Under the pieces are notes generated by a model. The model ran no database searches. It saw nothing but the letters and a program-made list of their open reading frames with translations, and had not been told where the DNA came from. Below, piece after piece: positions 3,506 through 14,619 of a stretch of DNA of 24,646 nucleotides. The stretch is from a virus (lineage: Duplodnaviria > Caudoviricetes): positions 1-24,646 of the IMG/VR virus record IMGVR_UViG_3300021197_000899; one strand, 5' to 3'. Each line of letters starts with the position of its first letter. The first letter of the stretch is position 1. Made by a program: the position numbers and the translations under genes.

Positions 3506-3693
3506 TTTATTCCCTTTTTTATTTGTATGAGATAACATGCAAGGTATATAGCACCATCTAGTGCTTCCTCTATTGATTCTTGCAAGAAATCTCTTTTATC
3601 AGTTAAAGGTATGTCACGCCCATACTTTTCTGCACCTTTATCAAGGCGTTCTTGTATGAGCGTAGCAACCTCATTGTTTATACTATCACTCAT
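3502..3693 (-). CDS. MazG-like all-alpha NTP pyrophosphohydrolase family small protein
   Basis: KGAEKYG...DFLQESIEEALDGAIYL fits the ExxEExxD acidic helix of the all-alpha NTP-PPase superfamily. Confidence 0.55.
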   Translation of the reverse strand: MSDSINNEVATLIQERLDKGAEKYGRDIPLTDKRDFLQESIEEALDGAIYLACYLIQIKKGIK

Positions 3694-3871
3694 GTCTACC
3701 TAAAGCTACCCACATAGTATCTGGGGTAAGCCTTTTTAGGTTTCCATTGTTACAGTTAACAGCCATTATTCTTACATAACGGTTTAGTTCATCTTCAACA
3801 ACTTCTAAAGCACCAGCACCTAGCTGTACTTTATAGTTTTTAAAGATTTCTTTTATTTGTTTTTTGTTCAT
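3686..3871 (-). CDS. Putative histone-fold protein
   Basis: 61 aa; short helix (KQIKEIFK), loop, long helix (AGALEVVEDELNRYVRIMAVNC), KRLTPD loop, short helix; AGGAG RBS. Confidence 0.45.
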   Translation of the reverse strand: MNKKQIKEIFKNYKVQLGAGALEVVEDELNRYVRIMAVNCNNGNLKRLTPDTMWVALGRHE

Positions 3872-3880
3872 TGTTTACTC

Positions 3881-4027
3881 CTATTGTTTGTTCCATATGA
3901 TTTTATCTAAATGTTCTTGAGCAATGCGTTTAAGTGTGCCGCTATCTGCGTTAGTTGTTAATATTTTATCGTATCCATCTATTGCTTTAGATAACATTTC
4001 TTCTAATGTTTTGTATTGTTTAGACAT
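3881..4027 (-). CDS. Small hypothetical protein (48 aa, not in ORF track)
   Basis: MSKQYKTLEEMLSKAIDGYDKILTTNADSGTLKRIAQEHLDKIIWNKQ; fills the gap between neighbouring ORFs. Confidence 0.6.
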   Translation of the reverse strand: MSKQYKTLEEMLSKAIDGYDKILTTNADSGTLKRIAQEHLDKIIWNKQ

Positions 4028-4257
4028 GTTGGACATGTTTCTTTTCCTTTTCCGTATGCAGGAAAGTTTTCATACCATAAAAATTGTTTTTTAGAATTAT
4101 TAGGTTTACATATTGGTTCCCAACATCTATTGCATTCTTCACAATGTTTAATGTATTTATCTGCTTTTTTTTCTAATCCACATCCTTGATGTCCTTTTGT
4201 TTTTGTTACTTCGTTTCTAGTAGTCTTTGCCAAAAAGCTTTCTATGATATGAGTCAT
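4003..4257 (-). CDS. Zn-ribbon small protein
   Basis: CEEC and CPTC pairs; AAGGAA RBS. Confidence 0.65.
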   Translation of the reverse strand: MTHIIESFLAKTTRNEVTKTKGHQGCGLEKKADKYIKHCEECNRCWEPICKPNNSKKQFLWYENFPAYGKGKETCPTCLNNTKH

Positions 4258-4396
4258 TTATATATTCCTTTACACGATTGTATTTTATTTTAAGTAGTGG
4301 AACTGCATCTTTAACGTGAGGACATGACGTAAAACTTTCCACATGGTTTAAGATACTAGTTATATCTTCTATTTCTGTTTGGATTAGTTTATTCAT
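4217..4396 (-). CDS. Hypothetical protein
   Basis: Start moved to MNKLIQ (4396) behind AAAGGAGA; the longer 5' extension runs through a hairpin. Confidence 0.65.
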   Translation of the reverse strand: MNKLIQTEIEDITSILNHVESFTSCPHVKDAVPLLKIKYNRVKEYINDSYHRKLFGKDY

Positions 4397-4415
4397 TTTA
4401 TCTCCTTTTGTTTTT

Positions 4416-4453
4416 GAGGTGGTACATAGTTCTTCGCCAACCAGCACCACCTC
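4416..4453 (-). promoter_or_regulatory. 5' leader stem-loop ahead of an A-rich RBS
   Basis: Minus strand GAGGTGGTGC...GTACCACCTC (one G-U), followed by AAAAACAAAAGGAG. Confidence 0.6.
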
Positions 4454-4560
4454 TTCATTTGTAGTCAACTAATTTATTAATTAACAACAACATACAAATA
4501 GAATCCTTTCACGTTTATTTAAGATTAATTTGTATTGCTAACTAATTAAATAGTTATCTT

Positions 4561-4890
4561 CTACCCTGTTATTGTTTTTAACAGGAGTAAGAAGTCTTTG
4601 TAACGTATTGTTACTAATGGTTCTCCTCTATCTTCCTTTATGATTTGTCCATAAACATCATCACAAGGTTTATAAAGTTCACCAATTTTTTTACGAGCTT
4701 TAACTTGAAATTTATATGGTACAGAATCACCTTGTTTATCTATAGTCATATCTACTTCTTCATGCCATCCAAGTGACCTACCATCAGACCCCCAAGCTCT
4801 GCGTGAATTAAAGCCAAATTCTTTAGCTAAATTGACACATTCTCGTTCTACTCGATTGCCTTTTTGTTTTGCTGCTCTGCCGCCACTCAT
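4561..4890 (-). CDS. Holliday junction resolvase, Hjc-type PD-(D/E)xK nuclease
   Basis: KQKGNRVERE N-terminal motif, VD catalytic Asp and FQVK motif. Confidence 0.75.
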   Translation of the reverse strand: MSGGRAAKQKGNRVERECVNLAKEFGFNSRRAWGSDGRSLGWHEEVDMTIDKQGDSVPYKFQVKARKKIGELYKPCDDVYGQIIKEDRGEPLVTIRYKDFLLLLKTITG

Positions 4891-5216
4891 GATTTTTTGT
4901 TTGCTGGATGTTCGTTATCTAACATTAAATCAAACATGTCGTTTACTCCGTTTTTCATTTCTTCTTTTGTTTCTTCGACATATGAATGCCTTATTAATGG
5001 AAAACGTTCTTCGTTTAACAAACAGAATTTTAAAGTGTTAATTACATCTTTGTAGTTGTTTAATTTTGCACCAAGGTCTGTTTGCACAACTCCAAATTCT
5101 GCACCATCTGGATGATTTAATAATATGTGGTCTACTGGGATATTAATAGAAGCTTCTATTATATAATCTTCGTATGCATCTATTAATTTTTTTATTAACT
5201 TTTCTTTATTTATCAT
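4887..5216 (-). CDS. Hypothetical protein
   Basis: 109-aa ORF coupled to its neighbours by overlaps. Confidence 0.7.
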   Translation of the reverse strand: MINKEKLIKKLIDAYEDYIIEASINIPVDHILLNHPDGAEFGVVQTDLGAKLNNYKDVINTLKFCLLNEERFPLIRHSYVEETKEEMKNGVNDMFDLMLDNEHPANKKS

Positions 5217-10436: not shown

Positions 10437-10566
10437 TATCTAAAACTCCCATGTGATAATCAATAGCTTTTGATAACTCTTTAGCTTTAGTTATATACAA
10501 TGGTTTAGCTGTACCAAGTTGGTCAAGAAACTCTTGTATATCTTTAAGTAGTTCTTTAGTTGTCAT
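10426..10566 (-). CDS. Small hypothetical protein (46 aa, not in ORF track)
   Basis: MTTKELLKDIQEFLDQLGTAKPLYITKAKELSKAIDYHMGVLDNVS; AAGGAG RBS; fills the gap. Confidence 0.7.
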   Translation of the reverse strand: MTTKELLKDIQEFLDQLGTAKPLYITKAKELSKAIDYHMGVLDNVS

Positions 10567-10855
10567 TTTTTTTCTCCTTTTGTTGTTCTGTAATATGTTG
10601 TTTTATTATTACTTCTGTGACACCAAATCTATCCATACCTTCGAGACAATCTCGTAATTGTATTTCTGTTTGATTTTTGTGTGTTATTGTTGTAGCTCCA
10701 TCAACTAGTACTTCTATGTCGTAACGTTGTTTATTACTAACAACATTACCAACTTTACTAGTTGCTGTGCCTACAAATCGCAACACATTGTTTAAACCAA
10801 AAGCAAGATAACCCAATGTTTTACTTAATTGACCAAATAATGCTAGTTTATTCAT
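10556..10855 (-). CDS. Hypothetical protein with amphipathic N-terminus
   Basis: 99 aa; AGGAGG RBS; ATGA coupling. Confidence 0.7.
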   Translation of the reverse strand: MNKLALFGQLSKTLGYLAFGLNNVLRFVGTATSKVGNVVSNKQRYDIEVLVDGATTITHKNQTEIQLRDCLEGMDRFGVTEVIIKQHITEQQKEKKNDN

Positions 10856-11145
10856 TTATGTTCGCCTCCTTCTAACCATCTATCAATATGGTTACTTTCT
10901 AAGTCTCTTAGTTTATTTTGTATTTCAATTGCACTACATTCTTCTTTAGTTAATTCGTATCTGAATGGGGCTGCTTGCATTTGCATACGCATAGTTTTAC
11001 CTGTTTCATAAGCATCTTCAAAGCATTGTGGACAATACACAACATCGTGACTTTTAGTTATATACTCTTCAGTTATTGAATCTAATTCTACATAACTAGT
11101 TTCAATCATTTCTGGTTTAACGTCTGGATGTATCATACATCTCAT
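10852..11145 (-). CDS. Zn-finger-like early protein
   Basis: Start moved to MRCMIHP (11145) behind GGAGG; CxxH and CPQC motifs. Confidence 0.7.
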   Translation of the reverse strand: MRCMIHPDVKPEMIETSYVELDSITEEYITKSHDVVYCPQCFEDAYETGKTMRMQMQAAPFRYELTKEECSAIEIQNKLRDLESNHIDRWLEGGEHK

Positions 11146-11175
11146 AATTACCTCCGTTTGTTTTAATATTAGAAA

Positions 11176-11232
11176 TAAAGGAAGCAGTTTATGTACCAAA
11201 GGAAGATGAATATTATAATTACTTCCTTTATT
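11176..11232 (-). other. Stem-closed RNA module ahead of an RBS
   Basis: AATAAAGGAAG / CTTCCTTTATT 11-bp perfect stem, extended by U-G on the minus strand. Confidence 0.6.
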
Positions 11233-11269
11233 CCTGTTATAATTTAATTTATTCCTAAGAGAATTACTA

Positions 11270-11407
11270 TTAGTTTTTCTTTTCTTGTTCTATTATCCTT
11301 CCGTCTTCAAATATCCAAACACCTAATTTTTTGAATCGTTCAAAGTCTTCAGGATGACCTCCATGACAATTGCACATTATTGCAAAATCTTGTTCTGTTA
11401 TTATCAT
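11270..11407 (-). CDS. Small hypothetical protein (45 aa, not in ORF track)
   Basis: MIITEQDFAIMCNCHGGHPEDFERFKKLGVWIFEDGRIIEQEKKN; AAGGAG RBS. Confidence 0.7.
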   Translation of the reverse strand: MIITEQDFAIMCNCHGGHPEDFERFKKLGVWIFEDGRIIEQEKKN

Positions 11408-11440
11408 TTGTTACTCCTTGTTTTTGTTTGTTTAATTTTT

Positions 11441-12512
11441 AGAGGTTATACACAACCCTGACACGCTTCCCCTACTGACACTTGTTGCAAACTCGTGGTA
11501 GGTTTATCGCATGCCTTGTACTCTACTATACTACTATAAGATGTATAGTTTCTTCCAATGGTGGCTGATGTCATGACGTTAACGAATGTTAATGTGCATA
11601 ACCTCTTATATTGTTGGTGTTAACATTAATGGACGTCTCTGCTTACTATTAATTAAGCGGTTAACACCATATTTATGTGAGAGTTAGCCCCTAAGAGTGC
11701 TACACTCTTTAACCGCGTATGTTTATAGTCTGACAGACCTATCGTCATAGGAACGGTTTACTGCCCAGCATTTTCACAGAGTTATGACAGTTAGATATAG
11801 TCAATTTTACCTTCTCTGTTCATCGGTGACTCTCACAATTTAAAGCCCTCCTACTTATCAACTTACCTGCGGAATGATAACCAATATGAAAGGAGCTATA
11901 GTAAGGATTTGTTTCAAAGGGCTTTTAATATTTTATGATGTGTGGTTTCTCGGTCTATTTTCACTCACATAGTTTTTTTATACTAGACTCATCATAGGTC
12001 GTTGAAAATAAAGGTCACTCCCATCGTATTAGTGACATCAGTTGCAACTTGGGAACTATATTTCAACGTAAATAAAATTTGCTCTGTTTGTTGCCAAGGT
12101 ACAGAGCAAACCTTGTTTAATTAGACATTTAGTTCCTCTAATTATGGAACATCTACGCTGTCTGATTGATTAGTTAATTAGTCTAATCCAAGATTGATAA
12201 TTACGCTTTCGAATGACTCTGCTGTTTCTTTTAGATTATACAGATTATGGTACCTAAAACAGGCATGAAAGCAGGGTAATTATGATTGCTTGCGACAGTT
12301 GATTTAAGAGGGGACATGTTTGTATTAACTACCAACACATTCTCTTAATCTATAAATAAAGGAAACTGTAAAAACTTGTTTAAAAAGTAGCTTGTTTATT
12401 GTGGTTCCGTTTTTTGTGAGCTTTTTTGCGAGCTAAAAGTAAAGAGTGACTGAAGGATGAAGGAACACATTTAGCACAATAATGTGGTGCCAATTACTGA
12501 CACCACACTATT
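11441..12512 (-). ncRNA. Array of about 11 tandem, sequence-distinct, stem-closed structured RNA modules (function unknown)
   Basis: Closing stems at 11441-11606, 11615-11669, 11676-11837, 11842-11925, 11934-11996, 12000-12068, 12078-12110, 12120-12187, 12197-12283, 12301-12350 and 12478-12512; no ORF of 60 aa or more. Confidence 0.65.
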
Positions 12513-12536
12513 TTTATTGTGAACTGATAAGGTTAT

Positions 12537-12878
12537 TTACTCTTCAGTAGACACTACCATATATCTTAGAGTATCATTTTTACAATGATGTACTGTGCCC
12601 TCTGCAAGCATAAACTTAGCTTTGGTTAATATATCAGTAGTTTCTACGAACTCGTCTTCACATGTCTCAATGTCTTTGATGAACATATTTACAATAAATC
12701 CCTCATCAATTACATCTTTTATGTCGTCCATTTGTATTGCTGTATCCTGCCATACTCCGTTAGTATTAACAGATTTATTAAACCAAATACGTTTACTGGC
12801 TCGCTTTTCATTGCGTGTTTCAACGACTTTCTCGATTGATTTCCAGTAACTCTGTAGAACTTTTGACAATTTACTCAT
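12537..12878 (-). CDS. Hypothetical early protein
   Basis: 113 aa; AAGGAAG RBS; preceded by the TTAATCCTTTATCT motif. Confidence 0.75.
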   Translation of the reverse strand: MSKLSKVLQSYWKSIEKVVETRNEKRASKRIWFNKSVNTNGVWQDTAIQMDDIKDVIDEGFIVNMFIKDIETCEDEFVETTDILTKAKFMLAEGTVHHCKNDTLRYMVVSTEE

Positions 12879-12922
12879 AGTATCTTCCTTATTTTGATTA
12901 TGATGTTTAAAATAAACACCAG

Positions 12923-12936
12923 AGATAAAGGATTAA
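12923..12936 (-). promoter_or_regulatory. Early-region repeated motif TTAATCCTTTATCT, copy 1
   Basis: Exact 14-mer also present at 13350-13363 and 13907-13920. Confidence 0.7.
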
Positions 12937-12948
12937 GTTAATAATAGT

Positions 12949-13114
12949 AAAAGAGCAACGAAGTTGCACATTTAGTAAAATTGCTTGGTGCTTGTTTATA
13001 ATCCCCCTCCCTCTTTTTGTTAATTGTTAGTGTATATATAGGATTTTTTTAAGGGTAGAAAGTTGGCTGATTGCATACCGCCCTGTCGTCACAGTATTAA
13101 TTATCTACCCTTAA
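12949..13114 (-). ncRNA. Two further stem-closed RNA modules
   Basis: AAAAGAG/CTCTTTT with inner GCAAC/GTTGC (about 12949-13018); TTAAGGGTAGA/TCTACCCTTAA 11-bp stem (13049-13114) with inner CTGT-GACG-ACAG. Confidence 0.5.
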
Positions 13115-13121
13115 TTTTATG

Positions 13122-13316
13122 TTAAAATAAGATGTTTATCTTTTCTTTTAAATCTTCTAAACCTTTAATCTTACCATTAAGATGTTTAACATCATTCCTA
13201 TAATCTTCGTTATCAAGATAATTAGGTAGGTTTTCTATTGTTGTTATATTTTTACTTAATTCGTAAATACTATTATTTATTAATTTTAGCACCATTTCTA
13301 TGTTTAATGCTTTCAT
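13122..13316 (-). CDS. Hypothetical early helical protein
   Basis: Start moved to MKALNIE (13316) behind ATGGAG. Confidence 0.7.
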   Translation of the reverse strand: MKALNIEMVLKLINNSIYELSKNITTIENLPNYLDNEDYRNDVKHLNGKIKGLEDLKEKINILF

Positions 13317-13349
13317 ATTATACTCCATTGTTGTTATTAAAAATATTAT

Positions 13350-13385
13350 AGATAAAGGATTAATGGGGGCATTTGCATACCCCCA
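13350..13385 (-). promoter_or_regulatory. GCAA-tetraloop hairpin directly followed by motif copy 2
   Basis: Minus strand TGGGGGTAT-GCAA-ATGCCCCCA then TTAATCCTTTATCT. Confidence 0.65.
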
Positions 13386-13390
13386 CATCA

Positions 13391-13633
13391 TTAGTCTTGC
13401 ATTTTATTGAACTTTTCAGCCTCTTTTAATTTGGCTTTTAAGTTCCATATTTCATCATTCTTTTTTTGTAAGTTACTTACATATTGTCTACATAATCTGT
13501 TGTATTGACTACATTTATGTTCAAGTTCCTTGATACGTTTATTATTCTGTTTTTTTAAAGCTCTCAATGTTTTGATTTCTTCATCTTTGAACATTATTGG
13601 TGTTGCCAATATATCTCTGTTGTCTTTTTCCAT
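13391..13633 (-). CDS. Hypothetical coiled-coil early protein
   Basis: 80 aa with heptad-like pattern; ATGGAG RBS. Confidence 0.7.
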   Translation of the reverse strand: MEKDNRDILATPIMFKDEEIKTLRALKKQNNKRIKELEHKCSQYNRLCRQYVSNLQKKNDEIWNLKAKLKEAEKFNKMQD

Positions 13634-13656
13634 TATTTACACTCCATTGTTATTAA

Positions 13657-13706
13657 AAAAGTTTGCCCTGCAACCTAATTATAGGGAATTTTACGCAGGG
13701 ACTTTT
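13657..13706 (-). other. Intergenic stem-loop module
   Basis: Minus strand AAAAGT-CCCTGC...GCAGGG-CAA-ACTTTT; could also act as a terminator. Confidence 0.5.
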
Positions 13707-13710
13707 GGTA

Positions 13711-13884
13711 TTATTGAGTAAACTCTACAGATTGTATAGCACTGTTCTGTGCAAATCTATGAGTTGCCTCATCACGAGCAAGTTCTTTAGTATTGAACCT
13801 GTCTCTGTTTATTAACTCAACGGAGCCTGAGTTTAAATCTTGAAATTCGTAGTACAAGCTCCGTTCACTAATACATACTATCAT
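13711..13884 (-). CDS. Small hypothetical early protein (57 aa, not in ORF track)
   Basis: MIVCISERSLYYEFQDLNSGSVELINRDRFNTKELARDEATHRFAQNSAIQSVEFTQ; GAGGT RBS; motif copy 3 upstream. Confidence 0.7.
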   Translation of the reverse strand: MIVCISERSLYYEFQDLNSGSVELINRDRFNTKELARDEATHRFAQNSAIQSVEFTQ

Positions 13885-13906
13885 ATATACCTCTATATTT
13901 ATTTAT

Positions 13907-13920
13907 AGATAAAGGATTAA
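13907..13920 (-). promoter_or_regulatory. Early-region repeated motif, copy 3
   Basis: Shares 18 nt (agataaaggattaagtta) with copy 1. Confidence 0.7.
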
Positions 13921-13924
13921 GTTA

Positions 13925-14016
13925 TATTAGGGATAGTACTCAATTTGGTAGGTACTACTCGGTACACGCTGATGGTGAGTAGATTACTGCGTGACCTCCA
14001 ATGCCTACCCCTAATA
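13925..14016 (-). ncRNA. 92-nt stem-closed RNA with predicted internal H-type pseudoknot
   Basis: 12-bp closing stem (1 G-U); TTGG-AGGT/ACCT-A-CCAA; CACGC/GCGTG crossed by CTACTC/GAGTAG. Confidence 0.6.
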
Positions 14017-14086
14017 CGATATACGATATGTAAACTTTTTACACTCCAATTGATGTAAAACTAAACATATCTAGGATAAAATCTTT

Positions 14087-14105
14087 GGGGGGATTTGCAC
14101 CCCCC
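14087..14105 (-). other. GC-rich GCAA-tetraloop hairpin
   Basis: Minus strand GGGGGGT-GCAA-ATCCCCCC just after the stop of the first early gene; no immediate U tail. Confidence 0.6.
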
Positions 14106-14117
14106 TAGTATTATGTA

Positions 14118-14306
14118 CTATGCGTCACAAGCAGGACATCCGTCATGATGACCATGTAACTCTTCAGTACACATTTCACGCTTACCAATATTAACAACTG
14201 TTTCAACTCCAGCTGATGCATATGTGTAAGCTACTTTTGCACCAGCACAAAGTATAACACCTGTGCCTACAAAGAAATAACCAGTATTTTGTAAGTATTT
14301 ATTCAT
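14118..14306 (-). CDS. First early gene: small protein with hydrophobic segment and His/Cys-rich C-terminus
   Basis: ATG at 14306 lies 10 nt after AGGAG; YFFVGTGVILCAGA segment; HGHHDGCPAC tail. Confidence 0.65.
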   Translation of the reverse strand: MNKYLQNTGYFFVGTGVILCAGAKVAYTYASAGVETVVNIGKREMCTEELHGHHDGCPACDA

Positions 14307-14344
14307 TGATTTCAATCTCCTAAGTTAAGTTAACTAAATACCAG

Positions 14345-14358
14345 AGATTTAGGATTAC
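14345..14358 (-). promoter_or_regulatory. Degenerate early motif copy (GTAATCCTAAATCT)
   Basis: 11/14 match, and shares the flanking CTGGT with copy 1. Confidence 0.55.
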
Positions 14359-14498
14359 TCTAACAATATGTAAGGATTATATAATACCCACCACACGTAC
14401 ATATGGGGGAATACCTGTGCGACTGCGGCTGTCTGTGTGCAGACAGGGGGTCGCCAGATGTATGGTAAGGGAGGGGTTAATAAAGGGTGAGTGTAACG

Positions 14499-14533
14499 AA
14501 CTCAACCTAACTCGATGTTTCAACTCAACCTAA
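14499..14533. repeat. Direct repeat AACTCAACCTAA x2 in the divergent intergenic region
   Basis: Copies at 14499-14510 and 14522-14533, followed by further CAACCC units. Confidence 0.7.
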
Positions 14534-14619
14534 TTCAACCCCACAACCCTTAATGTAAGGGGGTAGGGTAACCTATATACCTCTCACACACATTCTAAAG
14601 TATATTTCTACAAGAGTAG

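Follow-up and report, generated by a model that had tools for sequence, protein, structure and literature searches.

What does a tailed phage carry in about 1.1 kb of its early region that holds no open reading frame, within an otherwise gapless operon? The question is raised by IMG/VR record IMGVR_UViG_3300021197_000899, of which positions 1 to 24,646 (24,646 nt; hereafter the window) were analysed. A first-pass annotation had described positions 11441 to 12512 as a dense array of about 11 different stem-closed RNA units, and proposed a polycistronic cassette cut into small RNAs early in infection. Comparison with related phage contigs established modular folds, covariation, a minus-strand polarity, gain and loss of whole units, palindromes that are kept as palindromes and one H-type pseudoknot. 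Judged from these sequences, the structured-RNA cassette appears real and is well supported; it bears an unexpected signature of self-dimerisation, and its function can be proposed by inference.

In a PHROGs search with 35 window proteins, the terminase, portal and major head genes were found on the plus strand and those of an ERF-like annealase, a primase/helicase and a resolvase on the minus strand, where the DUF932 gene also lies. The stretch was found in runs labelled as marine or seawater metagenome, and the nearest cultured terminases are approximately 25% identical to that of this phage. Shine-Dalgarno (SD) sequences are present at 15 of the 22 phage gene starts checked. The 45-aa ORF following the region is regarded as accessory on account of its absence from two relatives (Table 1), and for the 113-aa early gene on the other side the best Atlas value was an uninformative 0.86. 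Positions 1-1979 of the plus strand encode the C-terminal portion of a very large protein that has a weak match to a 3,431-position PHROG of unknown function and may be an ejected virion protein. Capsid relatives in records titled Flavobacteriales, Prochlorococcus and Saccharibacteria were rejected as host evidence, being possibly co-assembled phage DNA.

Table 1. Features in and around the RNA cassette (z, per-unit folding scores, calculated post hoc)
Feature	Position	Strand	Remark
45-aa ORF with SD directly after U1	11270..11407	-	Absent in L001, L006
U1, core module: long closing stem, exposed 8-nt palindrome, variable insert	11441..11606	-	z -3.6
Second U1 palindrome TTGCAA, in hairpin loop	11485..11490	-	TTATAA in L049; 2/2 words palindromic
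U1 palindrome GTCATGAC, predicted self-dimer site	11570..11577	-	Palindromic in 5/5 words
U2, 55 nt, exposed invariant palindrome GACGTC (11632-11637)	11615..11669	-	3 variants
U3, 162-nt multi-branch module	11676..11837	-	Lost whole in L001 and L005
U4, 84 nt, loop with anti-Shine-Dalgarno-like word CTCCTTT (11889-11895)	11842..11925	-	CTCCTTT in 6/6 loop variants
U5, 63 nt	11934..11996	-	7 distinct matches including distant L101, L128, L014
U6, 69 nt, possible pseudoknot, 10-nt palindrome AGTTGCAACT (12040-12049)	12000..12068	-	Only 2 variants
U7, H-type pseudoknot, core 12081-12115 (35 nt), A-rich loop 3	12078..12118	-	Covariation, 9 sequences
U7b, small hairpin module	12122..12155	-	MFE; in L004, L046; partial in L001, L057, L072
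U8, second core module: nested stems, probable pseudoknot, loop palindrome GGTACC (12249-12254)	12158..12298	-	15 sequences
U9, first module	12301..12350	-	z -3.6; loosely related to first modules of L001/L002/L046
Promoter-like motif YCCTYTATNT(A/C/T)T(A/G), directly before U9	12351..12363	-	Putative function
Long hairpin after upstream gene	12475..12521	-	z -5.1; T-tailed in L002 and L073
113-aa hypothetical early gene, upstream bound of region	12537..12878	-	No PHROG or Pfam match
Sibling module outside the region first described	13052..13110	-	Inside array in L069 and L185

On the minus strand the cassette runs from 12350 to 11441 as ten stem-closed modules in the order U9, U8, U7b, U7, U6, U5, U4, U3, U2, U1, separated by linkers of 2-9 nt in which 40 of 45 bases are A or T. 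All six stems quoted in the first-pass annotation exist, the 11441/11606 stem having been given in its minus-strand reading; the core module U8 was not among them. The cassette proper most likely ends at 12350; 12351-12521 contains the promoter-like motif and the terminator-like hairpin, which is probably a terminator or a processing site and not one of the modules. The closing stems are 11441/11606 (14 bp, 13 complementary), 11615/11669 (10 bp), 11676/11837 (9), 11842/11925 (8), 12000/12068 (8) and 12078/12110 (10), and in the minus-strand MFE fold with spans of up to 220 nt the region splits at these units. Against dinucleotide shuffles, the test that had been suggested, 11441-12350 gave z values of -3.7 on the minus and -2.9 on the plus strand with unlimited span, and of -4.8 and -2.5 with a 200-nt span. 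Among fixed 120-nt windows starting at 11420-12440, only 3 of 18 on the minus strand reached z<-3; the signal is patchy, which makes covariation, more than energy, the basis of the case.

The ORF inside U1 (40-aa class) is not conserved, ranging from 2 to 47 aa over 19 variants, and SD-led ORFs within the cassette are only 1-9 aa long. No credible match to the Rfam 15 covariance models was found in 10500-13500 of the window (best E 0.15), and 18 related loci gave none at E<=0.1; nor did a blastn search of 50,697 phage records yield a match. The region was rightly said to be neither a CRISPR, a tRNA cluster nor a tandem ToxI array: direct repeats with regular spacers are absent, the repeats being short, degenerate families of 2-3 copies only, U7 is present in single copy, and ARAGORN found no tRNA or tmRNA gene in the window. 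Core words of self-cleaving ribozymes (hammerhead, twister, glmS, pistol, HDV-like), applied as crude regexes, were absent on the minus strand, and Rfam gave no match to these. A hammerhead reading of U5 and of the CTGGG module of relatives was rejected, the CTGAnGA core being absent.

For the comparison, 185 related loci (L numbers), many of them duplicates, were collected with DUF932, ERF, terminase and capsid queries and with DNA patterns. Seven chance matches to a degenerate pattern (L045, L059-L061, L064-L066) were left out, and L067, identical to the window, does not count as independent. With U1 as the anchor, 28 distinct regions were obtained, partly near-identical. Distant U1 loops were misaligned by MAFFT, and anchored extraction was used for the U1 stem and loop counts. 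Among 13 stem variants of U1, 8 of the 10 positions of the closing stem have changed on both sides. In U8, 99.7% of 360 cells are paired and 6 of 24 pairs show two-sided change; the covariation score was reached by 0 of 500 shuffles, and slid controls were 28-60% paired. U7 is not the plain hairpin of the earlier reading: 96.6% of its cells are paired, two-sided change occurs at 4 of 13 pairs across both helices of the pseudoknot, and again 0 of 500 shuffles reached its score. Six of 17 pairs covary in the CTGGG module (17 sequences). The U4 closing stem has one two-sided change, and the U2 stem two G-U changes and no two-sided one; variants of U2, U6, U7b and U9 are too few for a strong covariation test, those of U6 placing its structure beyond the reach of covariation. 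The crossing 4-bp helix of U8 is invariant and so gives no covariation support for the probable pseudoknot. U6 and U8 can both be drawn as pseudoknots with contiguous 3' strands and a palindrome in the first loop, a drawing in which only one helix is covariation-tested.

Over the counted helices the minus strand has 305 Watson-Crick, 26 G-U, 1 A-C and 4 other cells. The excess of G-U over A-C establishes the early strand as the folding strand. The preference for this strand was correctly noticed from G-U pairs, whose counts are the better indicator of strand; the GCAA loops cited with them lie mostly in hairpins outside the coordinates given there.

Modules match relatives end to end or not at all. 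Otherwise 98.7-100% identical to the window, L046 lacks exactly 12070-11997, that is, U6 and a linker. Homology ends within 8 nt of a linker at 26 of 32 distinct BLAST ends from 19 relatives, compared with 24% of positions; the ends share ancestry and are not independent events, so that a p-value overstates the effect. Contigs of related marine phages differ by entire modules, which have been gained, lost or reordered, the order being largely kept, and 13 of the 30 module orders listed contain both core modules, U8 and U1. Extra modules missing here (CTGGG, CATAT, GTATT, ACACA, GAGAAC, L005, L001a) occur in relatives, and at least 18 distinct module families served as seeds across the window and its relatives. 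Single modules recur where terminases are 72-89% identical (L103, L104, L109, L128, L133, L141). L133 holds a divergent U3 homologue with a different closing stem, and minimal U1 forms of 63 nt occur in L103, L104 and L159-L161. One large multi-domain RNA, the alternative offered in the first-pass annotation, is disfavoured since module content and order vary.

Units that are bounded by inverted repeats and come and go whole might also be selfish or neutral miniature elements piling up in a tolerated spacer. In MITE- or REP-like elements of this kind a shared terminal repeat and target duplications would be looked for; here the closing stem differs from unit to unit, the linkers have no evident duplication pattern, the order is largely kept, and internal stems, pseudoknots and loop words covary. 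The internal covariation largely refutes this explanation, which we find hardly credible.

More ORF-free strings of stem-closed units, mostly of modules unrelated to those of the window, occur in distant relatives (L128 and L133, early strand; L044:4900-5460; L012:5198-5946; L020:4455-5095). In the distant relative L075, no such array was found upstream of the capsid gene. In L014 a 470-aa ORF (3668-5080), with no Pfam match and a weak match to phrog_6160 (E 2.6e-4), is inserted in the RNA region just before U1.

The exposed loops carry palindromes of 6-10 nt, the sequence of which changes while palindromy is kept. All five U1 words are perfect palindromes (GTCATGAC, GTACGTAC, GCTCGAGC, GTTCGAAC and GTATATAC). 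The U8 loop has three distinct 6-mers, GGTACC, AGTACT and GATATC (4/4 words palindromic), the GTATT module TGTACA and TGCGCA (2/2), and the L005 module ACAGCTGT and ACTCGAGT (2/2); an insert domain carries AGTCTAGACT and AGTCATGACT (two words, plus one off-target regex match). Of the five U1 words, four are in a common register, and the fifth, that of the window, lies in a longer loop (9+4 versus 6+2 flanking nt). The minimal-U1 model fails to detect the window U1, and the homology link runs via L101 (nhmmer E 2e-27). The change in the second U1 loop is a single event, and its duplex is weak.

In five of six palindrome sets, both central bases vary jointly. Neighbouring bases of one strand are unable to pair with each other. 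Their joint change therefore implies a constraint of two-fold symmetry, imposed by a second copy or by a dyad DNA site, and the palindromic loops, for which a hairpin is no explanation, point to RNA-RNA self-dimerisation. These loops are absent from the first-pass annotation, as are the U7 pseudoknot, the promoter-like motif and the sibling modules elsewhere in the early region. As a control, coding alignments from this phage group contained 252 variable windows with a palindrome, of which 0 kept their palindromy; in blind module alignments the figure was 4 of 88, with one of the four later dropped and U1 overlooked owing to misalignment. A further U8 loop window (TAATTA/TGTACA/TATATA), flagged as palindromic throughout, was discarded because its gapped variants in L007 and L073 are not palindromic, and the U9-family palindromes were dropped as evidence, their words being out of register. 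ACATGT of U9 is predicted to be buried and is out of register with relatives, and has therefore been excluded from the dimer sites. By raw number, palindromes show no enrichment in the region (24 versus 18.7±4.3), and no conserved palindrome was found in U3, U4, U5 or U7.

The predicted cost of opening is a median of 2.1 kcal/mol for the loop words versus 4.7 for coding palindromes, and 1.1-2.7 kcal/mol for the U1 palindrome in seven U1 variants. At 20 °C the U1 variants, U2 and U6 have predicted net dimer energies of -7 to -12.5 kcal/mol; the prediction is weak for the window U8 (-0.9) and unfavourable for U9 (+6.7), with pseudoknots lying outside the model. Palindromy at the central bases would also suit dyad protein sites, any 6-mer palindrome being a possible restriction site, and the locus might act as DNA, whether by hairpin extrusion, as an origin, or through palindromic sites recognised by restriction enzymes or dimeric DNA-binding proteins. 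Such a role is very improbable given the one-strand G-U bias, the pseudoknots and the GNRA-type loops in sibling modules; moreover, the words differ between close relatives yet keep fixed structural positions, and the rest of the genome is depleted of GC-containing palindromes (ratio 0.43-0.81).

How the cassette might be expressed is suggested by its flanks. The motif before U9 is also found ahead of many early genes, where a terminator-like hairpin often immediately precedes it; 14 loci contain 48 sense versus 9 antisense copies. The word TAnnT(T/A/G)T(G/A) stands before the first module in 10 of 14 arrays. A sigma70/terminator scan gave no excess over shuffles. The hairpin and motif recur on the minus strand of the window at 11166-11240, 12351-12363, 12920-12932, 13347-13392 and 13904-13916, and in many copies in L001-L020, often followed by a small hairpin in L015, L016, L019 and L020. 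In L019, a more distant relative, a lone tRNA-Tyr(GTA) gene (4074-4153), the only tRNA gene among 53 loci, lies in the early region directly before a motif copy. Further strongly folding intergenic hairpins (z to -4.3) lie at 13640-14560 of the window, minus strand, where they separate short early ORFs and mark the point at which early and late genes diverge.

The early-gene motif resembles the TAnnTTTG box of Bacteroidota. These bacteria are said to lack SD sequences (PMC6847099), whereas the phage uses them at most of the starts checked. The motif was not enriched in the two cell genomes tested (G001 and G002), and the minimal-U1 model gave no match in 151 genomes sampled from the phylum of G001, a search run with no positive control and uninformative. 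The recurrent hairpin and motif can be compared with the PeSL cassettes of T4-type phages, described as a repeated promoter-like motif and hairpin between accessory early genes with modular shuffling (PMC2839356). That likeness fits the flanking motif, a predicted terminator-promoter unit of PeSL-like kind that is not a sigma70 consensus. PeSLs are repeated regulatory DNA cassettes with sigma70-like promoters, whereas here non-repetitive RNA modules are the shuffled cargo.

The RNA-labelled data consist of 8 runs, of 24 listed, chosen for holding cassette pieces, which were present in all eight; as contigs they give no ends, strand or level. In four of these runs compared over 18 kb, other phage genes have a similar low depth and the cassette is no more abundant. 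Contigs bridge the linkers U2/U3, U4/U5/U6/U7 and U8/upstream (X1 11595-11825; X8 11903-12118), which indicates uncut molecules, perhaps precursors, or DNA and is neither proof of transcription nor support for complete processing. Of the proposed polycistronic small-RNA cassette, the separately folding, covarying minus-strand modules are borne out, and the cutting finds no support. X10 is a single record of a 136-nt adapter-flanked insert inside U1. X8 and X10 stop at 12163, a variant site that may be an assembly fork.

Lying upstream of the DUF932, ERF and primase/helicase genes, the cassette might be a cis-acting leader for them, serving antitermination, mRNA stabilisation or translational control, and in every close relative the array indeed ends with U1, adjacent to an SD. 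U1 is, however, first or internal in L103, L104, L159, L160 and L014, content varies widely, the further hairpin and motif at 11166-11240 intervene before the downstream genes, and the self-complementary loops would be left without reason. We hold this explanation to be quite unlikely. Position independence, as seen in U1 standing first in L103/L104 and in the CTGGG module standing alone in 14 loci, fits action in trans.

We tentatively favour a gene-free cassette of about ten exchangeable early-strand RNA modules, likely transcribed from its own promoter, with several predicted self-dimers, that likely act as decoys or aptamers for host RNA-binding defence or regulatory proteins; to the whole of this we give slightly less than an even chance. 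Early transcription would start at the 12351-12363 motif and stop at the hairpin near 11166-11240. Homodimers would form two-fold symmetric RNA particles suiting dimeric nucleases or toxins. Each module may match a different host factor, in which case it would follow that the module set turns over like accessory early genes. Exchange could proceed by short-homology recombination in the A/T linkers, plausibly via the ERF-like annealase of the phage, and single modules would possibly be released by host RNases at the linkers. The pseudo-ToxI of phage TE is a precedent for RNA mimicry, a phage RNA decoy against a defence toxin (PMC3475682). No binding partner, host or phenotype was identified in this analysis, which counts against the decoy reading.

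The U4 loop suggests another mode of action in trans, namely small RNAs that pair with host mRNAs, with U4 occluding SD sequences. Its CTCCTTT word is kept in all variants, and phage genes do use SD sequences. Among the phage loci there is no convincing target (the best match, of 14 nt, is in one genome and absent from the window; the other 14-nt match is AT-rich and on the non-target strand), and most modules fold compactly and conserve their junction bases, rather than offering open seeds. We regard such pairing as improbable. Antisense regulation of the phage's own genes, suggested earlier, likewise finds no support among the phage loci. A U4 antisense match in L004 was rejected as not conserved.

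If left uncut, a transcript of approximately 900 nt would be a multivalent RNA, and its orthogonal palindromic loops could cross-link copies into a network or condensate that concentrates or sequesters proteins early. One window transcript has 3-5 exposed or covarying palindromic sites, and linkers are bridged in the RNA libraries. Designed three-arm RNAs with palindromic 6-nt kissing loops are described as condensing, three arms being the lowest valency (PMC11289419), and four-arm versions as condensing in E. coli (PMC13018614). Against this, every module is closed by a stem of its own and flanked by short A/T linkers, an arrangement suggestive of release; in some relatives a single module such as CTGGG occurs alone, approximately half of the modules lack palindromes, and the bridging contigs may be DNA. 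We consider a condensate unlikely. These synthetic RNA nanostars resemble the cassette in having several self-complementary loops of the 6-nt class on separate stems of one transcript (PMC11289419; PMC13018614); they are products of design in which every arm of a star bears the same loop, whereas here the RNA is natural, the word differs per module and condensation is predicted only. Combining both ideas, a natural RNA nanostar might be imagined, in which exchangeable domains with orthogonal palindromic loops polymerise into RNA-only dimers, networks or a condensate displaying decoy aptamers (a pseudoknot antitoxin mimic, an anti-SD loop, ligand-binding junctions). The idea is speculative and rather doubtful; if true, it would be the RNA counterpart of an accessory anti-defence gene cluster, evolving by domain shuffling.

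Among known RNAs, ROOL, GOLLD, OLE and ARRPOF are the closest in self-pairing. They are described as natural ncRNAs of unknown function that homo-oligomerise via covariation-supported kissing-loop or palindromic pairing, ROOL and GOLLD being encoded by phages or prophages (PMC12286853; PMC12990946), and natural RNA oligomers are described as rarely reported (PMC12990946). As in these RNAs, intermolecular pairing appears, computationally, to be conserved by covariation, the palindromes covarying including their central bases. They are single RNAs of 255-833 nt with conserved architecture, ROOL and GOLLD often near tRNA islands, whereas here modules of 35-166 nt are mutually unrelated, shuffled between genomes so that content and order vary, match no Rfam family and have a single tRNA in the loci searched.

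U7, with its H-type pseudoknot and two covarying helices, resembles the type III antitoxins ToxI, antiQ and CptI, and its core compares with ToxIN-family monomers of 34-36 nt (PMC5086642). Unlike these it is in single copy in every array, not in tandem, matches no Rfam family and is one of about ten unrelated modules. No toxin endoribonuclease family was found among the 35 window proteins (PHROGs) or 19 proteins (Pfam). By sequence, U7 is no member of the type III antitoxins, being unrepeated and with no toxin gene found; a mimic would need none.

In phage T4, RNAC and RNAD sit in the tRNA region. These phage-encoded small ncRNAs, described as of unknown function (PMC9697503), are two late RNAs, whereas here an early-region cassette has many exchangeable modules without tRNAs. 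In the literature searched, mostly papers open without subscription, no phage cassette of exchangeable, heterogeneous, self-pairing RNA modules was found described. In three of the six supplementary files of PMC10690425, neither our contig names nor two short motifs were found, and single modules may be among its 10,006 candidates.

Phage counter-defence and host takeover have been described almost wholly as protein functions, pseudo-ToxI being a rare RNA precedent, and the module families shuffled like accessory genes suggest a parallel RNA arsenal. Several unrelated small folds with covariation-supported self-pairing loops, including the minimal 63-nt U1, are cheap to synthesise and can be studied with no need of the host.

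The most widespread module, CTGGG, is absent from the window. It is a three-way-junction RNA with a GNRA-type loop, invariant junction bases and no Rfam match (L001:6537-6609 and 21 other variants, for example L015:9254-9332 and L141:2929-3003), and looks like a ligand-binding aptamer. The CATAT module (L008:5734-5815, L057:3184-3319, L101:2789-2892) combines a conserved bulged base helix with interchangeable apical domains, one of which carries a covarying 10-nt palindrome.
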